Below, piece after piece: positions 1 to 11,865 of a stretch of 11,865 nt of DNA. Location of the stretch: IMG/VR virus record IMGVR_UViG_2703718850_000008. The stretch is one strand, 5' to 3'. The stretch comes from a virus. Lineage: Duplodnaviria > Heunggongvirae > Uroviricota > Caudoviricetes. Numbering within the stretch: position 1 is the first letter of the stretch; every line of letters starts with the position of its first letter. Position numbers and translations under genes: made by a program. Below the pieces are notes generated by a model, which worked only from the letters and a program-made list of their open reading frames with translations, made no database searches and had not been told where the DNA came from.

Positions 1-1322
1 TTACCAGCCTACAGCAATACCCCCTCCGATTACTGCTCCATCAGTATTATTCCATGAAGACGATGCACGAATATTGGTGTTTTCATTAAGTTTGTATTGA
101 ACACCAACAGCTACTGCATTACCGTTTCTATAGTTACCAACCCCAACGCCGGCACTAAATGTCTGGTTATTCACATACGGGATATTGGTCATTGCTGCTA
201 CGGAAGCAATACCTGCATTAGCTTTTTTAGCATTAGCTTCTATCTTATCATTCAGCTGCTTAAATGTTGAATTTATCTTCCCATTAATTTGGTTAAATTT
301 TGTATCAGTATATGCGAATGATTCTTGTTTTGCTGATTGTATGTTTTTATTAATAACACCGTTATTTTTCGTAACTTCCTGATCAGTGTATGCCATTGAT
401 TCGCTTTTGGCATTATTAATATTCTGNNNNNNNNNNNNNNNNNNNNNNNNNNNNNNNNNNNNNNNNNNNNNNNNNNNNNNNNNNNNNNNNNNNNNNNNNN
501 NNNNNNNNNNNNNNNNNNNNNNNNNTTATTAATATTCTGATTTATCACAGCATTATTTTTGGTAACCTGCTGATCTGTATATGCCAGTGATTCATTCTTG
601 GCATTATTGATGTTTTGATTAATTACGGTATTATTTTTAGCTATCTCATTCCCAGTATAATCTTTCAGTTGCTTAACGTTAACACCATCAGTATCCTCAG
701 TACCTGCGGCAACATGGGTCAATTGTCGATTAGTATTACCCGTCCCAAAAGATACACTATACTCTCTGTCAGTTGTACTTCCCCCGCCGATGGCAACACT
801 ATTATTATGTTCAGCCACACTCTGTGAGCCTAGTGAGATGGCATTTTCTGCATTAGATGTAGCCCCTACACCAATAGCTAATGTATCTCCTGCAGTCGCC
901 TGGGCGGAGGAACCAAATGCAACACTGTTTTCCCCGGTTGCTTTAGACGCAGCACCTACACTTGTAGAATTAGCGACTGCCTCACTACCCGCACCATTTG
1001 CTATAGCTGAATCACCGTTTACTTTACTAAATGAACCAATGGCTACCGAGTTATTTCCAACAACATTTGCATTTGCGCCAATAGCTGACGATGAGTTACC
1101 TTGAGATGAAGAATATGAACCAATTGCAGTATTATAGGCTCCTTCGGTTTTTGAAACAGCGCCAATTGTTGTAGAAGAAGAACCTGAAGCATTTGCATAT
1201 GCACCAATAGCTGTCGCATTACTATCAGTTGCCTGGCTATTATCACCGGCATTATAAGAATTATATGCATAAGAATTTGCTGAAACTGTAAATATAACAG
1301 AGGCTACAAATAGTTTTTTCAT
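1..1322 (-). CDS. Trimeric autotransporter adhesin (YadA-like), C-terminus complete, interrupted by assembly gap 427..525 so frame and length across the gap are unknown
   Basis: ATG at 1322..1320 gives MKKLFVASVIFTVSANSYA, a Sec-type signal peptide with AxA-like cleavage site. Head region has repeated NSVAIG / SxAxG-type motifs. Stalk has about 26-aa repeats (YTDQQVTKNNAVINQNINNAKNESLA). The last ~70 aa (GIASVAAMTNIPY...GGGIAVGW, stop at 3..1) look like a YadA-type membrane anchor ending in an aromatic residue. The ORF-track start at 1364 is a TTG upstream of the signal peptide and is not preferred. Confidence 0.8.
250..700 (-). repeat. Tandem in-frame coding repeats (about 78 nt / 26 aa) of the adhesin stalk
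   Basis: Near-identical nucleotide blocks at 412..426, 526..540 and, diverged, 603..618 (78-nt offset between the last two). Protein repeats NINNAK(N/S)ES(L/M)AYTDQ(Q/E)VTKNN(A/G)VIN occur on both sides of the gap. Boundaries are approximate. Confidence 0.6.
427..525. other. Assembly gap (run of 99 N) inside the adhesin coding sequence
   Basis: Uninterrupted N run. Both flanks carry the same repeat (ATTATTAATATTCTG at 412..426 and 526..540), consistent with a collapse or scaffold join inside a tandem repeat. Confidence 0.95.
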
Positions 1323-1900
1323 AGAAATGACGTATGTTAAATAGATTGAAAAGATAAGATTCAAATCAATTAAATGACGCTTTAAAAATAAGCGGCAGGA
1401 TTTTATTCATCTGATAAAAATAGCGCAAGAGTTGTCTTATATGGAATATTCAGATAAGTCTTATTGAAAAAAACGGTATAACAAATACATAACATTACGG
1501 CCATTATACATACATTATAAAAATTACAGAGATATTTAATTAAATCCAAAGCATTTTTTCAATATGGATTTCGAAGAACTTGTTATAGTACATTAATCAA
1601 TCAATTATTGGTATTTCGCTCACTGTTCATATAGTTTTAATACATCAATGCATAAGAACATTTTCTCATTCATAAAAGCGATAAAAACTGTTGTACCTTA
1701 TATTGTTAATGTTTGGTAACAAAGACAAATCCAACAAGGCATTGATCATCCCCTATGATACCCATAGAAAGAATTATCTGACATATAATAACGATATAAA
1801 GTATATTATTGCTAATGAAACTATATGATAGCTTCACATTCAGCAATACCTGCTCAACCTTATCTCTGGAAATGAACATTGCTAACTTTCCTACTCCTTA
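1323..1900 (-). promoter_or_regulatory. Long AT-rich non-coding leader upstream of the adhesin gene, presumed promoter/regulatory region
   Basis: About 0.58 kb with no ORF of note on either strand and strongly AT-rich runs. No specific -35/-10 could be fixed by eye. Confidence 0.3.
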
Positions 1901-2118
1901 ATCCTTCTCCCAGAGCGCATCATCCACACCGACAATCCCCTCAGGCATCAGCCAGGTGACATTTTCCGCTAATGGGCTGGTTCAGAGATAAATAGTGCGT
2001 CCCCGGAAGCCAAGTCAAGGAGCATTTTTCCCCTGTGACCTTCAACGGCTACTTACTGTTTAAAAACAGCTACGATGCCAGCATAGATACTCTTGAATAC
2101 GATGTACTACGTTTTTTC

Positions 2119-2849
2119 TTATTCTGGACTGAACTCCCTAACCTGCTTCAAATCCAGGAGATTGCTCAGTTCCTCTTTCATTTCACGCTGATGACGATAA
2201 ATCTCATTATTGCGATCAACCTGCGCCATAGCTGCAGCCAGCTCCTCCAGTTCCGTCATCGACAGTTTCACCTGCTGATTATCAGCATCACTCCATGTCA
2301 TAACGTCCCACTGCCCTGAGTTAGCCCCTGCAGCCATTACCACCGGGTAAAGGCGGGCCAGCGAGTCGGGGCCGCCATTCCAGGTGTGTCCGTTCCATTC
2401 GAATGTGAACGGCTGCGCTTCCTGTTCTGTGCGCCACACCTCGATTTCCCGCTTTCTGGCATCCTTTCCCACGGCGATAAGTTCTGGCGTGACGGTGAAC
2501 GCAGGGCTGTCCAGTGGCGCTTTTGTTTTCGTCTCGTCCATGACGGTTTTGACAGCCTTTGGCGTGGCTGCCAGTACTTCGCTGTCGTTGTCTGTATCAC
2601 TACAGAGTTGCGCCAGACCTTTTTTGTCGTGGAAGCATTGCTTCCCTTCAGATCATCAACTATCCATTGCGCCTCGTCCCTGTGCTGTTTCGCGCTCTGC
2701 TGCGCCTGCACCACAGTTTCCTGTCACCACGTCGGCAACTGTGCGCATCACACCTCTGAGGTGTTTACCCGGGATTTCAGAGTTATGTGGCATCCGTACA
2801 TGGGGATGCCTGCGCCATCAATCAGCGCACCTGATATCACTACAGACAT
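2119..2849 (-). pseudogene. Remnant of a side tail fibre (Stf-like) gene: short N-terminal ORF, frame disruption, then a C-terminal ORF in another frame
   Basis: ATG at 2849..2847 encodes MSVVISGALIDGAGIPMYGCHITLKSRVNTSEV and then TGA at 2750..2748; this resembles the lambda-type Stf N-terminus as I recall it (MAVKISGVLKDGTGKPVQNCTIQLKARRNS...). In another frame, open from 2652 to the stop at 2119, the translation contains SEVLAATPKAVKTVMDETKTKAPLDSPAFT, matching the LAATPKAVK..MDET..KAPL.SPA motif of Stf/P2 gpH-type fibres. The ORF-track call 2119..2541 is only the part after an internal Met. The total span is far shorter than an intact fibre gene. Confidence 0.55.
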
Positions 2850-2872
2850 AGTTTTTCTCGCGATAAATTAAA

Positions 2873-3418
2873 TCAGGAAGAGGCTTCCAGAGAGACGGGC
2901 CATTCAATGGCGTTATATGAGGATTTATCAGTGATGGTGCTGAAATCCATCGCCTGCAGCGATTTCGCGTAAATGCGGTACGCTTTCAGCTTCTCCCTGT
3001 CGTCGTCACTGATTAATCCCAGCAGCAGGTCTTTTTCCCATTCGCTGGTCATGATGCTGACCCGTTGTAACAGGGCATCGCGCTCATCTTCCGCTTTAAG
3101 TTTGTAGTCGAAGACAAATTTATCGTCGCGGTAAAACCAGTAACCAGGCACGGTAATACGGCGGTTAGCGGTAATATCAGGAACTTCAATAACACTGGCG
3201 TTACGGGGTTCAATGCCTGTCACATCCTTACCGACCCATACCACGCGCCCGTCTCCGGTGTAAACCATTTTTATGGTGTCACTGGCAAAATTTTTCAGCT
3301 CTTCATACCAGTTTTGGTCATCTTCCGAAAAAAGCCAGGTGATACCATGTTGTTTTGTCATCTGATATTGTTCTGCGGTTTTCGGATTGCCTGCAGTAAT
3401 ATTTTTTAAATGCAACAT
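2873..3418 (-). CDS. Tail fibre assembly protein (Tfa, P2 gpG-like)
   Basis: N-terminus MLHLKNITAGNPKTAEQYQMTKQHGITWLFSEDDQNWYEELKNF...VIEVPDITANRR closely follows the conserved Tfa/gpG N-terminal domain as I recall it. The ATG lies 2 nt after the tail fibre stop, and the gene sits directly downstream of the fibre gene. Confidence 0.85.
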   Translation of the reverse strand: MLHLKNITAGNPKTAEQYQMTKQHGITWLFSEDDQNWYEELKNFASDTIKMVYTGDGRVVWVGKDVTGIEPRNASVIEVPDITANRRITVPGYWFYRDDKFVFDYKLKAEDERDALLQRVSIMTSEWEKDLLLGLISDDDREKLKAYRIYAKSLQAMDFSTITDKSSYNAIEWPVSLEASS

Positions 3419-3420
3419 TG

Positions 3421-4974
3421 TTAAACACTCGCCACGTTATACCAGGTGCCGTTAATCAGTTTCTGAAGCGGTCGGTAATACACGCCGTTGACGTTATCCG
3501 CTGAATTTTTACCAGTATCCGATATCGATATCCCTGACAATCCGTGTCCCGCAGGAGCGTGATATGTCCAAGAGATTACATTGCTGCCAGGTTTGTAATA
3601 CATTTCGGAACCATAGCGCACATCCTGCACGCCGCCATTTCGCTGCTGATAACGGGCATCGAAATTTCCATAGTTTGATGGGGTCATCTGTCCGTTTACA
3701 GCGAATGTGATACTGCCATCGGTATTTCTCTGGCTGTAAAAATGCCAGCCGGAATCATCACCAAGCTCTGCAACTACAGGTCGGGATGAATTACCCCATA
3801 AATTAAACGTTGCGTTTTTCGTGGAGTTGTTGGCGCTGGATAACGTGAATTTTTTAGCATTTCCGGCCTGAATATTTTTTAACGCTATCGCCACACCATT
3901 CTGGAAACGAAATACATGCTGTCCATTCGCATAAACATCCAGAATGCCGTCGCCGTTTTGTTTTATACCTGTATCGTTATCCCCGAAAGCAATTGAGTTT
4001 CCGCCCAGCGCGTTCTGAACGCCGATACCCAGTGCACCATTGACCTGAGAACCACCGCCAACAGACACTTTATGCGACATGGATATCTCTCCTGTCCGCA
4101 AATTAATGGTGAGCGGACGCAGGGGACCAATATCTCCATTCTCGCCCTGACCTTCACTAGTAGGGATAAGGTGCAGGCACTCTTCAGAACGGCGAAAAAT
4201 AAGGCCAAAAGCCTCGTTAAAAATCCTCAATGCATTAACACCACGTATTTTCAGCTCCCCGGTCATCAAATCACCAGATTTTTTTACATATCGCAGATCA
4301 AAATCTGAATAGATATTGCCGGGGTTTATCACACTGAAATAGCTTTTCTCGCTATCAAGAAGGCAAATCAAAGGAATACCCTTAATGATATCATTCGCTA
4401 CCAGCTCGGACTTGTTCCCCTTATAAAGTGGGAACGTACCAAGAACCTTTCCGCCTAGTGTTAGTTGAAGTGTCGCCGCGTTGGTATTGTTCTGAACGGG
4501 GAAAACTATAATCGGGGTTCGTAGCGTCCAATCTGTACCTCCATTAACAAAAAACGTCGAGGGAAGTTCCAGCGTCAGTGCGTTTGCAGTGCCACCAGTA
4601 ACACCCGCAATATAATGACCGCTCTGAAGCTGCGCTATCTGTACGAAATAGTTTTCCGAACCACGCGTGGCAAAGTTAGCCACAACATCATTAAGGGACC
4701 AACCTTTCGCGGTTGTTCCTTCCTGCCCACGAATGACTTTCAACACATCACCGCTTACCGATACCAAGTGACAAATCTCAAATGCAGACTCTTTATTATC
4801 GGTAAGCGTAATTTTTGCATAGACGCGTTGCCCGTTCGATTTATTTTCAAAATCGGCAGAAAGCAATTTTGCAAATTTAGCCCCTGTACCGGGCATTACC
4901 GGAATATCAGTCTGAATCGTGGTGATATCACCAGCCAGTACTGAAACAACGTTATTGCCGAACCCAAGAATCAT
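3421..4974 (-). CDS. Tail fibre protein (C-terminal region like P2 gpH-type receptor-binding region; N-terminus distinct)
   Basis: 517 aa. The C-terminal ~150 aa (NALGGNSIAFGDNDTGIKQNGDGILDVYANGQHVFRFQNGVAIALKNIQAGNAKKFTLSS...RPVVAELGDDSGWHFYSQRNTDGSITFAVNGQMTPSNYGNFDARY...INGTWYNVASV) match the conserved C-terminal block of P2 H-type fibres as recalled. The start codon overlaps the upstream gene stop (ATGA at 4971..4974). Confidence 0.85.
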   Translation of the reverse strand: MILGFGNNVVSVLAGDITTIQTDIPVMPGTGAKFAKLLSADFENKSNGQRVYAKITLTDNKESAFEICHLVSVSGDVLKVIRGQEGTTAKGWSLNDVVANFATRGSENYFVQIAQLQSGHYIAGVTGGTANALTLELPSTFFVNGGTDWTLRTPIIVFPVQNNTNAATLQLTLGGKVLGTFPLYKGNKSELVANDIIKGIPLICLLDSEKSYFSVINPGNIYSDFDLRYVKKSGDLMTGELKIRGVNALRIFNEAFGLIFRRSEECLHLIPTSEGQGENGDIGPLRPLTINLRTGEISMSHKVSVGGGSQVNGALGIGVQNALGGNSIAFGDNDTGIKQNGDGILDVYANGQHVFRFQNGVAIALKNIQAGNAKKFTLSSANNSTKNATFNLWGNSSRPVVAELGDDSGWHFYSQRNTDGSITFAVNGQMTPSNYGNFDARYQQRNGGVQDVRYGSEMYYKPGSNVISWTYHAPAGHGLSGISISDTGKNSADNVNGVYYRPLQKLINGTWYNVASV

Positions 4975-5597
4975 TTTTGAATCACCGTTGTTGCATAAGA
5001 ATAAATAAAAGGGAGTTTTACATATTTCTGGTCAATGGCATCTTTCAGAAAATAGCCTATACCATCACCATATTCTGGTATATGAATAGAAAAAACACTG
5101 TCCGACACAGTCACGCTCACATCAAAAGTGTGCTGCAACGGCGGGTCTATTCCGTTTTTCCCATGAATGAACCGTGCCACACGGCGCTTTAACCAGTCAA
5201 TGCAGAAATGCGAACCGTCAGCCTTATAAAAATTCCAAGTTAATATTCGCTTGAAATAATCATCCGGAACATACGATGCCTGCCCCGGAACATAATTCCG
5301 CATTGCCGCATAAGGGATTGTATTGTATTCAATGGTATCGTATGCGCCGCGTGCAATAGCCTCCTCGGAAACCTGTAGTAAAGGCCTTTCAACGCCATAA
5401 ATCCCGAGAGCAATCCAGTCCAGCAATTGCCCGGTTATTGATTCCGATGTCCAGCATGGCAATGCCAGATTGTTGAGTGAATCGAGGTATTCCTGAGCAA
5501 TTTCATTGTATGCATCAAAGAACGCAACAACATTCGGATCATCTCTGTACTGCACAAACGGATAAGCAGGGAGAATTTTTTCAGTCAGATATTGCAT
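4971..5597 (-). CDS. Tail/baseplate protein in the gpI position (I-like, DUF2313-type by position)
   Basis: Start taken at the ATG at 5597..5595 (MQYLTEKILPAYP...) rather than the ORF-track start at 5705, because the upstream part of that ORF overlaps the J-like gene. The stop overlaps the fibre start. It lies between the J-like gene and the tail fibre, as in P2 (J-I-H) and Mu (gp47-gp48-fibre). Family assigned by position and size only. Confidence 0.5.
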   Translation of the reverse strand: MQYLTEKILPAYPFVQYRDDPNVVAFFDAYNEIAQEYLDSLNNLALPCWTSESITGQLLDWIALGIYGVERPLLQVSEEAIARGAYDTIEYNTIPYAAMRNYVPGQASYVPDDYFKRILTWNFYKADGSHFCIDWLKRRVARFIHGKNGIDPPLQHTFDVSVTVSDSVFSIHIPEYGDGIGYFLKDAIDQKYVKLPFIYSYATTVIQK

Positions 5598-6807
5598 ACT
5601 TGTTAACTTGAACCTGTGATGCCACTGTCGAAAAATAGGAATAGGTATCGCCATAAACCAGGCTTGTGTCTTTTGCCGGAAGAACAATATGACCATTAAT
5701 GCCAATGCTCACACTGATTGTTGAGATCAACGTCGCATCAACCAGCAACCTGACAGAACTGGTAAAAATATCCTGGATACGCAGAAGATTTATCGGGTGT
5801 CCGACTTCAATTGAATTGATGTAATCAGCAACGTTTTGCTGCACAGCCATAGCAATACCCGCCGGATCAACATAATCATCAGACACCGTGTTCCAGGTGA
5901 TTAGCACCATGACGTTTTGTGATGACGGGATAACGAACGGCACCTGATAAACGTCCGGCGAAACGGTTATTGAAACCGTGCGTTTTTCCACTGCCGCACC
6001 GGATGGATTGCTTACATCGTTGGTCAGTTTCGAAATATCCGGTACAGATTTGTAAATCGCATAAGCCACATCATACGGATCACCGCCACCAACAACCGCA
6101 ACCCATTTCCCCAGCGACGACTGCCGGAAAGAAATCAGGTTTTCTCGCACACCGCTTACTGATTTGAGCATCGCTTTATAGCAATCCGGTGTTCCCTGCA
6201 CACCAAACATACCGGACTCCATGACTTCGGCGCGGTAAGATGCCCACGTCTGCGCCTCCTGACCTGGCATCCCTGCGGTAAGGTTCGTGCATTTTACAGG
6301 CTGGTCTTTTGGTACTGAGGTAATAACCTGCGTCACAGTCCCTTCCGGTACAGCCCATGAGCCTGACGTTGTGGCCACACAGTAGACTGGTTCAGTCTGC
6401 CCACTTTCCGGCACCACCGTATCGCGGGAAACTGCATACTGGTAGTTGCCATCACCGACAACAAATCCTTTAGGGATACCAAACCCCGGCAACGCCTCAA
6501 ATACCACGTATACCGCCGTATTTGTACTTAATCCCTTCTGTGCTCCATAAATGTTTCCGAGTTGCATCAGTAACGGAATATTTGCGCCGTATGGGCTTAC
6601 GGAGTTAATAAGGTCCACCCGCGCCTGGTCTATTAATGCCAGCGCCCCGACTGCCGTGCTGGCAAGGTCAGTAATAAGCCCCGCCGGAAGGTTGGCTGTA
6701 TATCCAGGTACTTTTTCAGCAACTCTGATGATAAGATTTGCAAGCAAATCATTGGGTGGCGTAGGCTGCGCCCCCGCACTGGTCATAGTAATTGGTATTT
6801 CTGACAT
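5581..6807 (-). CDS. Baseplate wedge protein, J-like (P2 gpJ / Mu gp47 position)
   Basis: 408-aa ORF with ATG at 6807 preceded by GGAG (6816..6813) at 5-nt spacing. It overlaps the I-like start by 17 nt and sits immediately upstream of the I-like and fibre genes. Assignment is mainly by synteny and size; sequence similarity was not verified. Confidence 0.5.
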   Translation of the reverse strand: MSEIPITMTSAGAQPTPPNDLLANLIIRVAEKVPGYTANLPAGLITDLASTAVGALALIDQARVDLINSVSPYGANIPLLMQLGNIYGAQKGLSTNTAVYVVFEALPGFGIPKGFVVGDGNYQYAVSRDTVVPESGQTEPVYCVATTSGSWAVPEGTVTQVITSVPKDQPVKCTNLTAGMPGQEAQTWASYRAEVMESGMFGVQGTPDCYKAMLKSVSGVRENLISFRQSSLGKWVAVVGGGDPYDVAYAIYKSVPDISKLTNDVSNPSGAAVEKRTVSITVSPDVYQVPFVIPSSQNVMVLITWNTVSDDYVDPAGIAMAVQQNVADYINSIEVGHPINLLRIQDIFTSSVRLLVDATLISTISVSIGINGHIVLPAKDTSLVYGDTYSYFSTVASQVQVNKYAISD

Positions 6808-6820
6808 ATTTACTCCATTA

Positions 6821-6845
6821 AAAAACCCGCTTTCGCGGGTTTTTT
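6821..6845. terminator. Intrinsic (rho-independent) terminator hairpin, symmetric, between the nuclease gene and the J-like gene
   Basis: AAAAACCCGC-TTTC-GCGGGTTTTTT: GC-rich stem of 6-7 bp with a 4-nt loop, flanked by an A-tract on one side and a T-tract on the other, so it is U-tailed on either strand. It starts 3 nt beyond the nuclease stop (6848..6850) on the minus strand. Confidence 0.6.
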
Positions 6846-6847
6846 AC

Positions 6848-8008
6848 TTATTCAACCTCTTCTAAACTGCTCACTCTGGACCCTCGGCGGAAATTATCAT
6901 CATTTTTAACATACTCGTATGAATCCAGAATCAAACCAGATATGCGAAGTATATCTTCCGGATTAGTTATATGTATCCTTTTACCATCCGTATCAAGTCG
7001 AGCTCGTCTTATTTCATTCAACTGAACTTCACTAAGCGAAATAGGTAAAGTTATAAATGAAGATTTTTTATCATAAAATCTTAACAGCCATCTATTAGTT
7101 TTACCATTCAATAGCACACCAAAATATGACTCAGTATCTTTATATTCTATATTATCTTCTGTTTGTATGATTTGTTTTACCCTTTCAAATAGCTCCAATT
7201 CTTTGGCTGTGGTTATTATGTTGGGGTTTTCTTCATCAACAATGGCGTTATTAACTTGTGTATCCGTTGCATCATTTTCTTTAGTTTGCTCTACCGGTTG
7301 TGTAGATAGCCCGGAAACCACCATTGCGCTAACAGCGCGCTCAACGGCCTGTTTAACTAATGGAGTCACGAACTCAAGAAATCTCTGATTAAGTTGTCTC
7401 TCAATATTTGAACGACTAGCAACATATCGAACAAACTCCAGATCAACTTCACGAAGACTAGAACTGATTGTTTTAGTAAATGAATTCAAATAAACACTTT
7501 CTTCAGCCAGTGTCCGTAAAGCCTCTGGTTTGAATTTATCATAACGAAAACGAAATAATTGTGTAATATCGGAGTGAGTTAGAGAATCCATTCTTATTTT
7601 TAAAAACGGCGTTGAATCCATTATGTTTTTTTGTTTCAAATCCGTAAAAAAACGCCATTCAACACCATTTGTAATGGCTGATATAGTAACTTCCGGTGTT
7701 GAATTAAAATATCTTGATAGCTGTGGGCAGTGATTATCAATTTGTTCTGAAAACGATTTCGCCTCAATGAACATCACAGGAACATCATGACAAAATAAAG
7801 CGTAATCAACCCGTTCATTAGCCTTAACCCCGGGGAAGTCAGCACTATACTCAGCTTTGACTTTTCTTGGATCATACGGAGTAAAACCAAGAATATCTAG
7901 TAATGGCATAATGAGTGCTTGTTTTGTCGTTTCTTCAGTTGTACAAAACACCCCCATTTTTGCAACATGCTCTGTGTGTATTTTTAACTTATTTGCAAAA
8001 TTTTCCAT
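6848..8008 (-). CDS. PD-(D/E)xK nuclease with HsdR-N-terminal-like domain plus uncharacterised C-terminal domain; prophage cargo (moron), candidate defence/exclusion protein
   Basis: Start taken at the ATG at 8008..8006 (MENFANKLK...) because GGAGGAG lies 6 nt upstream; the in-frame ATG at 8023 has no SD. The N-terminal ~150 aa carry TEETTKQALIMPLLDILGF...ERVDYALF...VMFIEAKS, i.e. the E...D...EAK pattern and the LIxPxLxxLG motif typical of type I restriction HsdR N-terminal-like PD-(D/E)xK domains. The coding sequence is visibly more AT-rich than the flanking tail genes and is followed by its own terminator. Confidence 0.7.
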   Translation of the reverse strand: MENFANKLKIHTEHVAKMGVFCTTEETTKQALIMPLLDILGFTPYDPRKVKAEYSADFPGVKANERVDYALFCHDVPVMFIEAKSFSEQIDNHCPQLSRYFNSTPEVTISAITNGVEWRFFTDLKQKNIMDSTPFLKIRMDSLTHSDITQLFRFRYDKFKPEALRTLAEESVYLNSFTKTISSSLREVDLEFVRYVASRSNIERQLNQRFLEFVTPLVKQAVERAVSAMVVSGLSTQPVEQTKENDATDTQVNNAIVDEENPNIITTAKELELFERVKQIIQTEDNIEYKDTESYFGVLLNGKTNRWLLRFYDKKSSFITLPISLSEVQLNEIRRARLDTDGKRIHITNPEDILRISGLILDSYEYVKNDDNFRRGSRVSSLEEVE

Positions 8009-8036
8009 GCTTGTCTCCTCCATGGTAACAATATGT

Positions 8037-8066
8037 ATTTTGCAAATCCGAAATAATATATGTCAA
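8037..8066 (-). promoter_or_regulatory. Putative sigma70-type promoter for the nuclease gene (TTGACA - 18 nt - CAAAAT)
   Basis: Minus-strand TTGACA at 8066..8061 followed after 18 nt by CAAAAT at 8042..8037, about 30 nt upstream of the start codon, within a 149-bp AT-rich intergenic region. The -10 is weak; this is a prediction by eye only. Confidence 0.25.
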
Positions 8067-8157
8067 TATGCTCCAGCTTAGAAAATTACTCGCCCCCCTA
8101 AAATATCTCTCTACAGCACTCCAAACCAAGGTAAAAGTTTTATCATAAAACTGTGAT

Positions 8158-8505
8158 TCATACCGGCACCTGCGTCCGGTAACTGGTCCCATTAAAAAAC
8201 ACAACATCGATGTTATAGGTGGGGTTATCTGCTCCATCTACCTTTGAAATTGCCAGTGATGCAAAATACCCAGCAAACTGTTGCTGAACCATGTTCACAT
8301 AGTAGTCTGGGTAAATCTGCTGCACGATGCACTGCTGTGCAGGAATACCGTAATTCGCGTAAAACGGCGACTCCCCCAATCCCAGCTTTAACGTCTGAAT
8401 GAGCGTCGTCAGCCAGCCGTAGGAGAAATCACCGTTGGCGTCAGATTCTACTGCAACCCATTTTTTGTTGCCGTTCGCGTCGGTGACGCGGCCCCATGTT
8501 CTCAT
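8158..8505 (-). CDS. Baseplate protein, gpW / gp25-like (sheath-initiator family) by motif, size and position
   Basis: 115 aa, sitting between the V-like and J-like genes where W sits in P2/Mu. It contains LIQTLKLGLGESPFYANYG, which aligns with the gp25/gpW signature as I recall it (T4 gp25 ...TTRKGSRPFDPEFG, P2 W ...TPVGSRVMRRDYG; spacing G-x8-(Y/F)G conserved). The start overlaps the upstream ORF stop (ATGA). Confidence 0.45.
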   Translation of the reverse strand: MRTWGRVTDANGNKKWVAVESDANGDFSYGWLTTLIQTLKLGLGESPFYANYGIPAQQCIVQQIYPDYYVNMVQQQFAGYFASLAISKVDGADNPTYNIDVVFFNGTSYRTQVPV

Positions 8506-8705
8506 CGTGCCCCCATCACTTTAACTAACTCTGTCAGTACTGGTGAAAAGGCAAATGCTAAAGCTACGAGTGCAGCGGTGTAATACATGCGTCGTAAGGT
8601 ATTGCTTTTTGCCACTAATTTTAAGGCTTTCACAATCCAGTCTCCTCCGCTAAAATTAATCACGGAAGACCTCCAAACATACGTAATCATCCCTTGCGTA
8701 TTCAA
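8502..8705 (-). CDS. Small hypothetical protein with a hydrophobic C-terminal segment; start uncertain
   Basis: The ORF-track start is a TTG inside the T-tract of the upstream terminator, which is implausible. A GTG at about 8600 preceded by GGAGGAG would give a ~43-aa product ending in YYTAALVALAFAFSPVLTELV, a possible transmembrane helix. It may not be a real gene. Confidence 0.25.
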   Translation of the reverse strand: MNTQGMITYVWRSSVINFSGGDWIVKALKLVAKSNTLRRMYYTAALVALAFAFSPVLTELVKVMGAR

Positions 8706-8717
8706 GGTGAGAAACAG

Positions 8718-8749
8718 AAAACCCCGACTGGGCCAACAGTCGGGGTTTT
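8718..8749. terminator. Intrinsic terminator-like hairpin downstream of the V-like gene
   Basis: AAAACCCCGACTG-GGCCAA-CAGTCGGGGTTTT: 13-bp stem, 6-nt loop. On the minus strand it is followed by TTTTCTGTTTCT; on the plus strand by TTTTCGTTTT. Confidence 0.55.
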
Positions 8750-8787
8750 CGTTTTATGGTCAGAATTTAAAGTGAAATGAACCGGTA

Positions 8788-9501
8788 TTAACCAGGATTT
8801 GGTTTCTTCGACGTAATCGTGCTGCTGCCGCTTTGAACACCAGTCACATCGTGGCTGTGGCCGCTGACGCTCACGCCGTTGATAACTGCATCCATCTCGA
8901 CATTAAGAGGACCAATCAGCGAAGCGGTTGTATCCTTCATCTGGGCTTTGTCCTGGACGATCGGTCCATTGAGGTGAATTTTCCCGTTCAGGAAAATATC
9001 TTCGGCCTCGAGGTAAACAGCTTTCGACTTTTGCCTGATTTCTTCCAGAGCCACCATTACCGAGCTACTGCCGTCCTCTGTTTTGAGGATCGCGCCATCC
9101 GGACCGTACAAAACGATTTTTTGCGGATCTTCGTCGGACCACTCCTTGTTTGCCAATGGCACGAAAAACAGGGGAGTGAGCGACATCGAGTAAGAAAGCG
9201 TTGCCATACCGGTTCCCAATCCGGACACACCGCGCAGTGATACATCAGCGGCAATTGTTACTCCTCGATCGCCCGGCTGTATCGGGTAACGGATATACGG
9301 GAATGTGGCGACAGGGATTGTTATCTGCGGGAAGTTGATCCCCTCCGGCAGCATATCAAACTGAACTGTCACTATTTGCCCGCAGATATCGACAACATGG
9401 CAGGGCAATTCGCGGCCTTTAAGCTCGGCTTGCTGGTTACCAGAACTGGTCATCATCTCCGACAGTGTTCGGAGAAACGGTAATTTTTGAGCGTTTGACA
9501 T
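8788..9501 (-). CDS. Baseplate central spike protein, gpV-like
   Basis: 237 aa. The C-terminal SGHSHDVTGVQSGSS resembles the His-containing apex motif of P2 gpV / Mu gp45 spikes (P2 V ...HTHKHPGDSGG as recalled). It sits upstream of the W-like gene, and its start overlaps the upstream stop (TAATG). Confidence 0.5.
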   Translation of the reverse strand: MSNAQKLPFLRTLSEMMTSSGNQQAELKGRELPCHVVDICGQIVTVQFDMLPEGINFPQITIPVATFPYIRYPIQPGDRGVTIAADVSLRGVSGLGTGMATLSYSMSLTPLFFVPLANKEWSDEDPQKIVLYGPDGAILKTEDGSSSVMVALEEIRQKSKAVYLEAEDIFLNGKIHLNGPIVQDKAQMKDTTASLIGPLNVEMDAVINGVSVSGHSHDVTGVQSGSSTITSKKPNPG

Positions 9502-10508
9502 TACACCCTCGCCCAGTTCTCAGCATATGCCTCAAATACCGTCACCCAGGCATCGCCATCGGCTGTCAGATACGAACCAATGTGTCTGACTGATTTCACA
9601 AGAAATTTCCCGGTGAACGTGGTCGAATTTTTTGCGATAACGCTGGGTACCGTTGTATTAGCCATCACAATCGACGCAGCGCCAGAATATAGCCCCTCCG
9701 GCAGTTTAACCACATCACCACATCTGATATCGCCTCTCATAGGGCATTTGAAACTGACGGTAAACGGCGCTATCCATGTCGGCTGCCCGACCAGTTCATG
9801 GGCATGAATTGTTTTTGGCTCACCCCACTTTGCCGATGCGTTATCGTAGATTCGTATTCTGTCGGAAAGAATACTGATGGCGATTCCGCTATACCTTTCA
9901 TTACGCATCATCGCAATAGAGGCGTTTTTTACGACCATAGCCAGCGAACCAATCTCCGTATATTTGCCCGTCCACGGCTCTGGCAAAACCAGGTTGTCGC
10001 TGACTGTGCAATCAATAAGTTTATTGGGATATGCTTTTTGCAAAGCGCGGACTAAAACATCACCCACCCTTTCCCCTGCTTCCCCCTGCCCCTCAATTGA
10101 AAAAGGGTTACCGTCATCGGTTTTGCGTATGCTTGGATTTATTACCAGGTTTAAAGTCTGGTTCGTGCCGATCCAGTTGGCATAGGCCAGATAAATTTCA
10201 CCATAGATTACCTCCCCCTGTTGATCCTTATTTGCCAGTGGTAACCCCTGAACAAAGCCTGCTTTCATACGTACCAGACAACCCTGCAAACTTACGCTTT
10301 GCTTCAGCATGTCAATTGGTAATCCATAGATCGTCAGCATCGTACCCGAACAGACTACATCCAGGCCGGTTACTTCAAAGTCAAATTCAACATGCAACCC
10401 ACATCCTGGTGTTTCATTGGTATCAAAAGGTCCAATGGGTTTTCCATTGCTATCCACTGGCGGCTTGCCTGTTTTAGGATTAATAATTTCCAGTCGGTAA
10501 TAACGCAT
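9501..10508 (-). CDS. Phage baseplate/tail morphogenesis protein (possible hub-type protein); family unresolved
   Basis: 335-aa ORF, translationally coupled on both sides (TAATG overlaps at 9501 and 10508), immediately upstream of the spike gene. No motif recognised. Confidence 0.45.
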   Translation of the reverse strand: MRYYRLEIINPKTGKPPVDSNGKPIGPFDTNETPGCGLHVEFDFEVTGLDVVCSGTMLTIYGLPIDMLKQSVSLQGCLVRMKAGFVQGLPLANKDQQGEVIYGEIYLAYANWIGTNQTLNLVINPSIRKTDDGNPFSIEGQGEAGERVGDVLVRALQKAYPNKLIDCTVSDNLVLPEPWTGKYTEIGSLAMVVKNASIAMMRNERYSGIAISILSDRIRIYDNASAKWGEPKTIHAHELVGQPTWIAPFTVSFKCPMRGDIRCGDVVKLPEGLYSGAASIVMANTTVPSVIAKNSTTFTGKFLVKSVRHIGSYLTADGDAWVTVFEAYAENWARV

Positions 10509-10774
10509 TACGAAACCTCAAACTGATTCGTACTTTCGCGAAAAACAAGTTTCCCCGGAGAGCAAGGCAGCGCCAGATTGATGTCGTAACTGTCAGGTGA
10601 CGCGATCAAAGGCATGTATACAATCACGTCGCCTGAACTGTCTTTCAGTTCCAGGTAGTAACGATTTGCATACAGATTAAACGGAACGCGGGCGAATGTT
10701 TCATATTCTCCGATTCTGGCAGTGAACTGAAATGGTCCTCGCCCGTCAGGTTTGAAAGGAATTAACGTTGTCAT
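10508..10774 (-). CDS. Small phage tail-module protein, function unknown
   Basis: 88-aa ORF with start/stop overlaps to both neighbours (ATGA at 10771..10774, TAATG at 10508). Coding is inferred from operon context only. Confidence 0.4.
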   Translation of the reverse strand: MTTLIPFKPDGRGPFQFTARIGEYETFARVPFNLYANRYYLELKDSSGDVIVYMPLIASPDSYDINLALPCSPGKLVFRESTNQFEVS

Positions 10775-11439
10775 AAGCCAAAACCAAACTCCTGCACGAC
10801 CTGGTTCTTAATACCTGACCACGATAGCGCCCCGTCTGACGGCATCCCTTTATCAAATTTATCCAGAACGCTCGCCAGCGTTTTTACCGTTTGTTCGACA
10901 GACGACAATGGTTGCTCAAACTCAATCTGCCAGGTGTGCTGAACCTGCTTGTTCTGCTCAGAGAAACCGGATGTATCGATAAACGACCGCATCAGACAGC
11001 GCGTGTAGATGAAAGATGGCGTCATTACGGTGTAACAACCGCCATACTGGTTATGCATATCGAGCGCCATTTTCAGCGCCGTGAATGTCATCCCCTTAGT
11101 GATGTAGCCACCGTCCTCCGTTGATGCCGGACGGATCATCTGCATGACTACCCGGTTAGGCTTCTTGACGGTCGCATTCGCTGCCGTTACCTGGTTATAG
11201 AAATTCAGGTTGCAAATATCCTGCTGAACCAACGTTGTCCCCGCCATCGGGGTAAATGCCGCCATCGAGCGTGTACGAATCTCGCCATGCAGCAGACCGT
11301 TCACAATGCTTAGGCCTTCGGTCAAAACAGCAATCGGCATCACCCCGCCGGGAATTTTCGACGCTATGCCATCAACTAAAAGAATGGGCGATACTTCAAA
11401 CGCCAGTTTGAAAGCTTGTCCAAAGTAATTAAGTGACAT
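10771..11439 (-). CDS. Phage tail/baseplate morphogenesis protein, function unknown
   Basis: 222-aa ORF. The ATG at 11439 follows the upstream stop (11443..11445) by 3 nt and is preceded by a G-rich SD-like stretch. Part of the same coupled operon. Confidence 0.45.
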   Translation of the reverse strand: MSLNYFGQAFKLAFEVSPILLVDGIASKIPGGVMPIAVLTEGLSIVNGLLHGEIRTRSMAAFTPMAGTTLVQQDICNLNFYNQVTAANATVKKPNRVVMQMIRPASTEDGGYITKGMTFTALKMALDMHNQYGGCYTVMTPSFIYTRCLMRSFIDTSGFSEQNKQVQHTWQIEFEQPLSSVEQTVKTLASVLDKFDKGMPSDGALSWSGIKNQVVQEFGFGL

Positions 11440-11442
11440 GGT

Positions 11443-11850
11443 TTACCCCGGTATTTGTTGCATTCCGGCGAGTTGTGCCAGTATGTCGGAACCTGGTTTT
11501 TGTTGAACGTCGAGCCTGATTACCTGAGAAGTATTATTTGGTGAATATACCTTCCCCCGGTTCATTGCCAGCGCCCGCATCACATCATCGCCACTTACTG
11601 CACGAGCGGCGTCCCCATTTTCATGGTTAATAATGCCCTGAATTAGCTTTCTCATTATCTCAAAATTAGAACCATCGATTTTCTCCTTAACACCTAATCC
11701 AGTGTACTGAGAGAGATAGCTTTTATAGGACGATGTGTTATTTCCATCAGATGAAGGGGCATAAATATCAATAATCTGATCAATCGTATTTTTGCCGCGT
11801 TTCAGGTATAGCATTACTTGCCGATCTAAGGCAGCAATGCCTTCCAGCAT
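11443..11850 (-). CDS. Phage tail-module protein, probably 5'-truncated by the window edge
   Basis: ORF with an internal Met at 11850; the reading frame stays open (A-S-F-P-T-M) to the window edge at 11865, so the true start may lie outside the window. Function unknown. Confidence 0.4.
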   Translation of the reverse strand: MLEGIAALDRQVMLYLKRGKNTIDQIIDIYAPSSDGNNTSSYKSYLSQYTGLGVKEKIDGSNFEIMRKLIQGIINHENGDAARAVSGDDVMRALAMNRGKVYSPNNTSQVIRLDVQQKPGSDILAQLAGMQQIPG

Positions 11851-11865
11851 CGTCGGGAAGCTGGC

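Follow-up and report, generated by a model that had tools for sequence, protein, structure and literature searches.

The window, a stretch of 11,865 nucleotides of viral DNA, encodes a YadA-type trimeric autotransporter adhesin (TAA) on the minus strand of its first 1,322 positions; the protein family is confirmed by the domain searches below and the trimer is presumed. We read the gene as a short 'lollipop' TAA and as accessory, moron-like cargo of an E. coli prophage, a temperate phage of the Rac family that integrates at ttcA, in which the cassette occupies a variable slot from the tail-fibre genes to attR; we give this reading a probability of roughly 0.8. The coordinates are collected in Table 1.

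Table 1. Features of the TAA gene and its surroundings, in window positions except for the last row
Feature	Position	Strand	Description and basis
TAA 3' part	1..426	-	last ~1.5 stalk repeats, terminal coiled coil, YadA anchor; stop codon 1-3
TAA membrane anchor	about 10-159	-	four beta-strands (Pfam YadA_anchor, AlphaFold2)
TAA terminal coiled-coil helix	about 187-423	-	within the 3' part (AlphaFold2)
Assembly gap	427..525	.	99 N, inside the 78-bp (26-aa) stalk repeat
TAA 5' part	526..1322	-	signal peptide, head, neck, stalk start (translation)
TAA stalk start	528-677	-	26-aa YTD repeats (repeat register)
TAA neck	about 678-737	-	repeat register and model
TAA head	about 738-1256	-	YadA-type left-handed beta-roll, 12 x 14-residue turns, two NSVAIG motifs
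TAA predicted signal peptide	1266-1322	-	MKKLFVASVIFTVSANSYA
AT-rich region upstream of TAA	1323..1900	-	27-28% GC (composition profile)
Small terminator-like hairpin	about 1378-1394	-	on the strand of the gene, about 56 nt before the ATG
Decayed Tfa pseudogene fragment	~1937..2046	-	RefSeq annotation of identical sequence in mip270_05, C41 and A2
DUF4376 protein (Tfa-like)	2119..2616	-	Pfam DUF4376, 2.4e-17
Phage-side (inner) edge of the ~2.3-kb TAA module	2137..2173	.	homology to TAA-less prophages resumes
Tail-fibre N-terminal remnant	2748-2849		annotation
Tail fibre assembly protein (Tfa)	2873..3418	-	Pfam Caudo_TAP, 6.4e-22
Tail fibre, 517 aa	3421..4974	-	homology to Rac-SA53 tail1 and phiP27 tail fibre genes
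Crossover cores and TAA in mip270_05	cores L011 2873 and L010 48856; TAA L010 47160-48524		

On translation, the coding sequence runs from an ATG at 1322 to a stop codon at 3..1, where the contig also terminates. The scaffold gap interrupts the gene within the tandem stalk repeat, and its length is arbitrary, since the reading frames to its left and right disagree. Both flanks of the gap have 100% protein identity to intact alleles of 402 aa (C41) and 428 aa (A2) from complete E. coli genomes, which argues strongly that the gene is complete, although the gap itself is not read through directly. The complete YadA-like architecture of the original prediction thus stands as far as the domains are concerned, each of which was found, but not as a contiguous sequence. 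A third allele has 454 aa, and the three lengths differ by whole repeats. In the A2 allele, TRF reports a period of 78 with 3.1 copies and 90% matches.

Pfam detects YadA_head in four stretches (E = 5.6e-19) and YadA_stalk (Pfam: PF05662, E = 9.5e-8) in the N-terminal 265 amino acids. The anchor domain, for which the prediction had proposed a search, is present in the C-terminal 141 amino acids (YadA_anchor, Pfam: PF03895, E = 1.5e-8), which end in IAVGW. The NCBIfam model YadA_autotrans gives a partial match (2.4e-25) that stays below threshold, with 89 bits against a cutoff of 750. The best sequence match among solved structures is the YadA head (PDB: 1p9h, 7e-22), and the anchor part matches the AtaA and YadA anchors in the PDB.

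We modelled the two halves of the protein that are present in the window separately with AlphaFold2, as monomers only, and obtained a mean pLDDT of 91. The sole low-confidence segment is residues 1-19, which are disordered (pLDDT < 50); the predicted Sec signal peptide has 19 amino acids and consists of MKK, a hydrophobic core and an SYA|Y motif. A beta-roll with a 14-residue period extends from residue 23 to about 195, with pLDDT 95-99 over the head, and is followed by the neck and by a stalk modelled as a helix that continues unbroken from residue 216 into the anchor (pLDDT > 90). In the C-terminal half (pLDDT 91) a helix (residues 2-80) precedes four strands (90-99, 102-114, 117-126 and 131-139), and both Pfam and AlphaFold2 have the coiled-coil stalk passing straight into the anchor without interruption. 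The best Foldseek matches of the head are the heads of BpaC and YadA. The two NSVAIG motifs of the head do not in themselves demonstrate collagen binding.

Positions 526-11865 of the window are 100.0% identical to E. coli mip270_05, where the corresponding element is a Rac-family prophage of ~49 kb. It starts at ttcA with intR-xisR-ralR-recET-kilR, goes on to the lysis, terminase, head and tail genes and ends with the TAA, after which come a duplicate of the 5' part of ttcA and then uspF. The same 15-bp crossover core, TTGTTCAGGTTGTAT, marks either end of the element, and the stop codon of the TAA is located 331 bp inside the attR junction, where the ttcA duplicate adjoins uspF. In each of the four loci that we examined, the att core known from the annotation of phage Rac-SA53 likewise separates uspF from the TAA. 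A location outside the prophage boundary would have spoken against the original prediction; in mip270_05 the gene maps inside attL and attR. For the window copy, the att junction is taken from these near-identical genomes because the contig reaches no further than the stop codon.

One module is found behind two tail types at an unchanged site, and related alleles occur in islands that are not phages, as might be expected if the module were left over from a chromosomal island at ttcA-uspF and successive prophages merely happened to sit beside it. We regard such an origin as extremely improbable, because the TAA lies inside the att duplication, because ~250-280 bp of phage-end DNA from attR to the module are common to the TAA-less prophages Rac-SA53 and VG48B2, and because the 96.4% allele of RM11911, with the same upstream region, ends a different prophage elsewhere.

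The TAA-bearing module of ~2.3 kb is missing from Rac-SA53 and VG48B2, both of which share its two flanks. This presence and absence among sister prophages confirms that the TAA is accessory and, together with the att mapping, bears out the view of the gene as prophage cargo in a lysogenic-conversion position. In blastn of L004, homology resumes at 9612 for Rac-SA53 and at 9649 for VG48B2, and the outer flank is common up to 7281-7357; the outer boundary of the module lies off the window, about 75 bp past position 1. The GC content of the module is 27-35%, compared with 45-58% in the tail genes. In VG48B2 this slot is filled by a defence pair, RosmerTA, with RmrA (1e-142) and RmrT (1.4e-59). 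The slot between tail fibre and attR in Rac-family prophages is a cargo hotspot, occupied by an adhesin or else by an anti-phage system.

Annotation, Pfam and GC content agree with the predicted neighbourhood, in which the TAA stands beside a tail fibre, Tfa and a decayed fibre gene across an AT-rich stretch. The tail fibre belongs to a baseplate tail module of the phiP27 / Rac-SA53 type, and the DUF4376 gene is the last gene of the phage backbone ahead of the cargo slot; the Tfa pseudogene fragment already belongs to the TAA module. Inside the tail module there is also a second non-structural ORF, which is HSDR_N nuclease-like and for which PADLOC returned no match.

Alleles of the TAA are found in several other genomic contexts. 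C41 and A2 carry theirs at the same site as mip270_05, behind lambda-type tails; the protein sequence flanking the gap is identical, and the gene has ~97% nucleotide identity, with differences mainly in repeat number. In RM11911 the prophage ended by the 96.4% allele is lambdoid. Alleles of ~91% are located in IS-rich islands and alleles of 76-82% amino acid identity on plasmids; we examined one of these plasmids, pRHB07-C17_2, which is conjugative and of the IncF type. Judged from these alleles, the lineage evidently changes carriers, which include prophages of the Rac-family and lambdoid types, IncF plasmids and an IS-rich island.

The TAA lineage is present in about 0.6% of complete genomes, and its carriers are mostly isolates from ruminants and other animals. 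This prevalence is probably an underestimate, as short-read assemblies break at the 78-bp repeat array and the exact proteins are absent from the protein collection that we consulted. No close relative from E. coli came up in a search of a large protein database, where a Proteus protein matched best, with 55% identity across 62% of the query. An exact-sequence look-up in the collection of 15 billion proteins returned none of the full-length TAA alleles, which makes the protein-database search uninformative for naming the TAA.

Between the window TAA and the island allele we obtained a dN/dS of 0.08 (dS 0.37), and between the window TAA and the plasmid allele a dN/dS of 0.06; the head alone gives 0.04-0.06. 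These values of 0.06-0.08, which cover three genomic contexts, show that the gene is under strong purifying selection. Inactivated copies do occur in some lineages, by a 1-bp insertion in five genomes and as split or truncated annotations in three further genomes.

Signals for expression were sought upstream and downstream of the gene. The AT-rich upstream region is common with other prophage alleles up to about window position 1742, and in the island alleles the upstream homology ends at 1415. A promoter consensus scan of the region upstream of the TAA found 11 sites, compared with 10.5 in shuffled sequences; since this is at chance level, we claim no promoter. No obvious Shine-Dalgarno sequence was seen before the ATG on direct reading. 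A hairpin plus U-tract ~40 nt past the stop codon (-18 kcal/mol, z = -1.6) is a plausible terminator. The AT-rich upstream region suggests silencing of the H-NS type in laboratory conditions. The prophage eib genes require the activators IbrAB, according to the title of reference 174 in PMC8065619.

Could the TAA be a passenger that is silent or in decay and at present functionless in this strain? Frameshifted or split alleles in at least 8 of the 31 genomes point in this direction, as do the decayed Tfa fragments that adjoin the gene, the AT-rich upstream region in which no convincing promoter or Shine-Dalgarno sequence was found, and a gene that cannot be read straight through in the window assembly. 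Against this, the low dN/dS holds in all three contexts, both window flanks are identical to intact alleles, and most carriers have the gene intact. A mere passenger is therefore decidedly unlikely.

The data show the domain architecture, the place within the prophage, the cargo status, the movement between elements and the purifying selection. We infer expression in the lysogen, trimerisation and a ligand or phenotype for this adhesin, the assembly steps being those of the well-established type Vc pathway. The protomer would be exported by Sec and its 19-aa signal peptide cleaved. Three protomers would then contribute four C-terminal strands each to a 12-strand outer-membrane barrel assembled by BAM, through which the passenger would be threaded out to form a trimeric coiled-coil stalk with the beta-roll head on top. 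The stalk would be about 19-27 nm long, with ~3.9 nm for each 26-aa repeat, and slippage or recombination in the 78-bp array may give rise to alleles of differing stalk length. By analogy with the functions shown for the relatives YadA, Eib and Cla, the TAA expressed from the lysogen would most likely enable its host cell to adhere and/or autoaggregate, and possibly to resist complement (serum killing). Adherence and serum resistance are both described for EibG, ClaA and ClaB (PMC13534694).

A different beneficiary can be considered. The TAA might serve the phage, as a dense layer of fibres of 20-27 nm that shields receptors such as LPS or porins, excludes superinfecting phages or aggregates lysogens. 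The anti-phage RosmerTA in the same slot of a sister prophage means that the slot is used for protective cargo, the tail module contains the HSDR_N nuclease-like ORF, and prophages are known to encode outer-membrane proteins that act in exclusion. Purifying selection, however, is equally strong on the plasmid and non-phage island alleles, which argues for a function at the level of the host that is independent of the phage. We consider a benefit to the phage unlikely, and equally so its more specific form, in which a surface shield within the RosmerTA hotspot is tuned in height in steps of ~3.9 nm by gain and loss of 78-bp repeats. To our knowledge, no TAA is known as a receptor shield or superinfection-exclusion layer; if the shield reading were true, a trimeric autotransporter would join the prophage defence repertoire and not the colonisation factors.

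Among the known adhesins, the original prediction had pointed to the Eib proteins, and here it did not hold. Three published features distinguish Eib (PMC12511318, PMC13534694): the N-terminal domain, the saddle minidomain, and a left-handed coiled coil that is conserved and carries the IgG-Fc residues. All three are absent from the TAA. The N-terminal domain of Eib has a novel fold and is placed before or in place of the beta-roll (PMC12511318); no such domain is seen in the AlphaFold2 model of the TAA, where the beta-roll starts at residue 23, only 3 residues past the signal peptide. Nor is there a saddle in the model, in which the stalk enters the anchor as an unbroken 79-residue helix with pLDDT 90-94. 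In EibD, the IgG-Fc-binding residues D378/Y388 lie in the conserved left-handed coiled coil, and the EibD structure 2xqh covers the Ig-binding stalk; with the TAA neck and stalk as query, no match to 2xqh was obtained even at E <= 10. The similarity to EibD is limited to the generic head, at E = 8e-5 and 25 bits compared with 7e-22 for YadA, and EibD ranks ninth in Foldseek with the TAA head (25% identity). In addition, lineages with less than 50% similarity and without the IgG residues were left outside the Eib family by Kotaka 2026 (PMC13534694).

An Eib-family immunoglobulin-binding protein, with a stalk that binds the Fc of IgG or IgA, is very improbable on these grounds. It would agree with the prophage location, eib genes being given as prophage genes in the table of PMC8065619 and its reference 174, as well as with the size class and with a YadA-like beta-roll head weakly similar to that of EibD. 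The missing N-terminal domain, the single helix in place of a saddle, the stalk without an EibD match and the exclusion rule of Kotaka 2026 (similarity and IgG residues alike) speak against it. As far as sequence and model allow us to judge, an immunoglobulin-binding Eib identity is not supported. P0044 and P0045 (511 and 484 aa) had been considered as Eib proteins because of their length; both are all coiled coil with no beta-roll and were not used.

The Yal proteins are described as 'function unknown adhesin-like' (Kotaka 2026, PMC13534694). The predicted architecture of the TAA, a lollipop with neither N-terminal domain nor saddle, fits this group, and agrees with its description as YadA/Saa-like (PMC13534694). 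JNEC-KY180, a strain from the Kotaka study, carries the TAA gene at 99.9% identity. The TAA of plasmid pKY178, the plasmid 'YalA' of that paper, has the same architecture as the window TAA and only 38% identity to it, and megablast with its gene found plasmid matches only and no near-identical chromosomal copy. We therefore did not name the window TAA 'YalA'; by sequence, a place in 'YalA' or in another Yal clade is unproven.

The TAA gene adds a distinct YadA-like lineage to the prophage-borne TAAs. Those of the Eib type are established in adherence and serum resistance of LEE-negative STEC and commensal E. coli. The gene is otherwise ordinary and functionally uncharacterised, and nothing in these findings would surprise a specialist.

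Compared with known systems, the TAA is closest in build to YadA, the prototype lollipop TAA. The domain order is the same, and both have a left-handed parallel beta-roll with NSVAIG-type 14-mers, a four-strand anchor and no saddle in the stalk; the neck (RQLTH-AAGT-DTDAVNV-QLK) is YadA-like, and the YadA structure ranks second in Foldseek with the TAA head (35% identity). Unlike YadA, which is encoded on the plasmid pYV, the TAA is prophage-borne in E. coli, and its stalk is made of 26-aa YTD repeats of variable number. With the Eib proteins (EibA and EibC-H) it shares the status of a prophage-encoded E. coli TAA, the size range of 390-510 aa, the beta-roll head that most members have and the lysogenic-conversion type of cargo. 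Cla has a pronounced saddle and a chain-like adherence pattern, whereas the TAA has no saddle. The lambda-type morons Lom and Bor are likewise outer-membrane proteins, whose accessory genes lie within or close to the tail-fibre region of temperate coliphages, both expressed from the lysogen, with Lom acting in adhesion and Bor in serum resistance (PMC8065619, table). Unlike these two, the TAA belongs to an unrelated protein family and is a cassette at the extreme end of the prophage, by attR.

The trimeric autotransporter adhesin (TAA) gene is a minus-strand ORF with its ATG at 1322 and its stop codon at 3..1, broken at 427-525 by a run of 99 N. Translation straight through this run falls out of frame, so its length is arbitrary, and the two parts were translated separately. 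We closed the gap by comparison with complete E. coli genomes matching the region. Both protein halves are an exact match to the flanks of the intact alleles of strains C41 (402 aa) and A2 (428 aa); a third allele, of 454 aa in strain mip270_05, has one residue different. The alleles differ in the number of complete copies of a 26-aa unit (NAKNESLAYTDQQVTKNNAVINQNIN). Its coding sequence is a tandem repeat of 78 bp (TRF: period 78, 90% matches), and the N-run therefore lies in an array that cannot be bridged by short reads. Since assemblies break on two or more identical units, the window strain probably has at least four copies. A 15-billion-protein collection does not contain the exact 402, 428 and 454-aa full-length proteins, and no close E. 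coli relative came up in a large protein homology search, probably because short-read assemblies break at the 78-bp repeats of the gene. The prevalence of the TAA is likely underestimated.

The original prediction had described a YadA-like architecture, which the Pfam annotation and the AlphaFold2 models confirm. YadA_head (5.6e-19, four stretches) and YadA_stalk (9.5e-8) were found in the 5' part, and YadA_anchor (1.5e-8), the domain proposed as a check, in the 3' part. The protein already has the RefSeq label 'YadA-like family protein'. Among the NCBIfam models YadA (89 bits, cutoff 750), BimA, Ata and EmaA match only in part and far below threshold, and the TAA is therefore none of these equivalogs. 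The closest sequence match among solved structures is the YadA collagen-binding head (1p9h, 7e-22). The two halves were modelled separately by AlphaFold2 with homologue alignments and reached mean pLDDT values of 91.5 and 90.9. The C-terminal half forms a 79-residue unbroken helix followed by four beta-strands. Foldseek neighbours of the head, which contains two NSVAIG motifs, are the BpaC, YadA, BoaA and CbpF heads, with EibD ninth. At 1.5 Å per residue from residue 216 to the barrel (standard helix geometry), the stalk of the 402-aa allele would be ~19 nm long and that of the 454-aa allele ~27 nm, with ~3.9 nm added per repeat.

Positions of the TAA parts, its module, the surrounding prophage genes and related loci
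Feature	Position	Strand	Detail
TAA 5' part	window 526-1322	minus	265 aa
TAA 3' part	window 4-426	minus	141 aa, C-term ...GGGIAVGW
Signal peptide MKKLFVASVIFTVSANSYA	TAA residues 1-19		disordered in AlphaFold2 model
Beta-roll head	TAA residue 23 to ~195		strict 14-residue period, AlphaFold2
Neck (…RQLTHVAAGTEDTDGVNVKQLK)	after beta-roll		AlphaFold2
Helix start	TAA residue 216		AlphaFold2
TAA module: hairpin + U-tract	~40 nt after stop		-18 kcal/mol, z only -1.6
TAA module: TAA gene itself			
TAA module: AT-rich DNA			~600 bp, GC 27-28%
TAA module: Tfa pseudogene fragment			
ttcA, then intR-xisR-ralR-recT-recE-kilR	mip270_05 prophage order 1		
Repressor + replication genes	mip270_05 prophage order 2		
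Holins + endolysin, terminase, head genes	mip270_05 prophage order 3		
phiP27 / Rac-SA53-type baseplate tail, tail fibre, Tfa	mip270_05 prophage order 4		
TAA, then uspF	mip270_05 prophage order 5		
Upstream hairpin (CGCTTATTTTTAAAGCG then T-rich run)	window 1378-1394	minus	~56 nt upstream of TAA start
HSDR_N ORF	window 6848-8023	minus	391 aa
RosmerTA pair	VG48B2 locus 3935-5724		between DUF4376 gene and attR
RM11911 TAA allele	RM11911 locus 9001-10366		1-bp insertion
'Anti-CBASS protein Acb1 family protein'	mip270_05 locus 24988-26424		478 aa
phiSTEC1589-Stx1c TAA	phiSTEC1589-Stx1c (PQ600364.1) locus 4164-5375		403 aa

The original prediction also suggested an Eib-like protein. [quoted passage not shown] The eib genes themselves lie in prophages (PMC8065619, table and ref. 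174). EibD (2xqh) matches the TAA only at 8e-5 and in the head region. The AlphaFold2 model has no room for an NTD and its C-terminal half no saddle, and a neck and stalk query found no match to EibD even at E<=10, although 2xqh does cover the Ig-binding stalk. Membership of the Eib family is therefore rejected on these three features, and with it the rival reading of the TAA as an Eib-type Ig binder.

E. coli mip270_05 has window 526-11865 at 100.0% identity, within a Rac-family prophage of ~49 kb. A partial copy of the ttcA 5' end is found at its uspF side (MSQNQEISKKEQYNLNK* vs MQENQKNTKKEIYNLNK…), and both junctions have a 15-bp exact core, TTGTTCAGGTTGTAT, in common. The TAA stop codon lies 331 bp from the uspF-side junction, on the prophage side, and in every locus examined the att core annotated for phage Rac-SA53 in GenBank separates uspF from the TAA. 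We considered that the TAA is an island remnant and not part of the phage. Alleles of ~91% identity do occur in IS-rich non-phage islands beside asrABC and an omptin gene; they have in common with the window TAA only the CDS and 93 bp upstream, and from the mip270_05 junctions and the att core position the gene lies within the prophage boundary, contrary to what would have refuted the original prediction. Because the window stops at the last codon of the TAA, this placement rests on near-identical genomes. In the mip270_05 prophage, the gene annotated as Acb1 stands in portal position directly after the terminase large subunit and may be a fusion or a mis-annotated portal gene.

Comparing loci by blastn, we delimited a discrete TAA module of ~2.3 kb, from ~75 bp past the stop to window ~2137-2173. 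Rac-SA53 and the 98.5%-identical sister prophage of strain VG48B2 share the flanks and do not have the module, which together with the att junctions supports the predicted status as prophage cargo. In VG48B2 the RosmerTA anti-phage pair (RmrA 1e-142, RmrT 1.4e-59) occupies exactly the TAA slot, and the slot is therefore a cargo hotspot. That the TAA in this slot is a surface shield serving the phage was also considered. C41 and A2 have the same module at the same site behind lambda-type tails (gpJ, tape measure). Elsewhere in the window, an ORF is wedged between baseplate J and the remaining baseplate genes. Its sole domain is HSDR_N / HSDR_N_2 nuclease-like (5.6e-14, 2.4e-9), the N-terminal domain of type I restriction R subunits, and PADLOC gave no match for it. 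In Rac-SA53 different genes, rac61, rac62 and ant, stand here, which suggests that the tail module has a second variable cargo slot; the ORF is possibly a defence or anti-defence gene.

The TAA gene was found in 31 of 5426 complete genomes, with carriers mainly from cattle, sheep, goat, poultry and wildlife and some from humans. RM11911 has a 96.4% allele with ~420 bp of the shared upstream region in another lambdoid prophage, placed after gpJ-Lom-tail fibre-Tfa at the prophage end, beside an IS630 fragment. Plasmid-borne alleles have 76-82% protein identity; on the one plasmid examined, the conjugative IncF plasmid pRHB07-C17_2, the gene adjoins IS3 and an AIDA-type autotransporter. Between contexts dN/dS is 0.08 (dS 0.37) and 0.06, and 0.04-0.06 for the head. 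By these ratios purifying selection on the TAA is strong, and nothing points to antigenic diversification.

Other phages have TAA-like genes. Phage phiSTEC1589-Stx1c has a TAA annotated as 'terminase large subunit', just downstream of a Bor-like gene. It has a signal peptide, a short head, a stalk and a YadA anchor ending SVGW; it is also prophage-borne, and its head is unrelated to that of the window TAA. By tblastn, TAA residues ~320-440 (window ~40-426 plus the repeat region), the stalk end and anchor, are 35-43% identical to virulent-phage genes annotated 'tail protein / agglutinating adhesin' in phages of Salmonella, Proteus, Cronobacter and Erwinia (e.g. FSL SP-058, Privateer, vB_CsaP_009). 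It follows that certain phage tail proteins have at their C-terminus a module resembling a TAA coiled coil and anchor.

With its architecture, location, cargo status, mobility and selective constraint established, the TAA is best read as a type Vc adhesin or autoagglutinin expressed by the lysogen, for which we infer expression, trimerisation and phenotype. It would be Sec-exported and assembled by BAM as a trimer whose YadA-like head is carried by a stalk that varies in length, possibly also giving complement resistance. The rival that it is a silent relic was considered, and inactivated alleles in some lineages count against lysogen expression: in five genomes (RM11911, RM13745, RM13752, TK3046 and YC21-F17) an extra G after TCTTCTTC, at about codon 50, strips the signal peptide from the annotated RM11911-type product. 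A promoter scan of the upstream region was at chance level, no obvious SD sequence was found for the TAA, and the AT-rich upstream region suggests silencing; the low dN/dS speaks against a silent relic. The small terminator-like upstream hairpin, on the TAA's own strand and within the 93 bp kept even in island alleles, might protect the TAA against late read-through from the phage.

In a survey of EibG-like TAAs across 13 STEC genomes, Kotaka et al. 2026 defined two more lineages (PMC13534694). Cla has a saddle, no NTD, chain-like adherence and serum resistance without IgG binding, while Yal ('function unknown adhesin-like') has neither saddle nor NTD and is near Saa (PMC13534694). The window TAA fits the Yal description in these two absences. 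One of their strains, JNEC-KY180, has the window gene at 99.9% identity, and 'YalA' was reported on plasmid pKY178 and the KY180 chromosome (PMC13534694). The single TAA of pKY178 has the same architecture as the window TAA but only 38% identity to it, and a sequence search found no near-identical chromosomal copy of it anywhere; the window TAA may be the chromosomal Yal member of KY180. It belongs in any case to a known kind, the short prophage- or plasmid-borne TAAs of E. coli.
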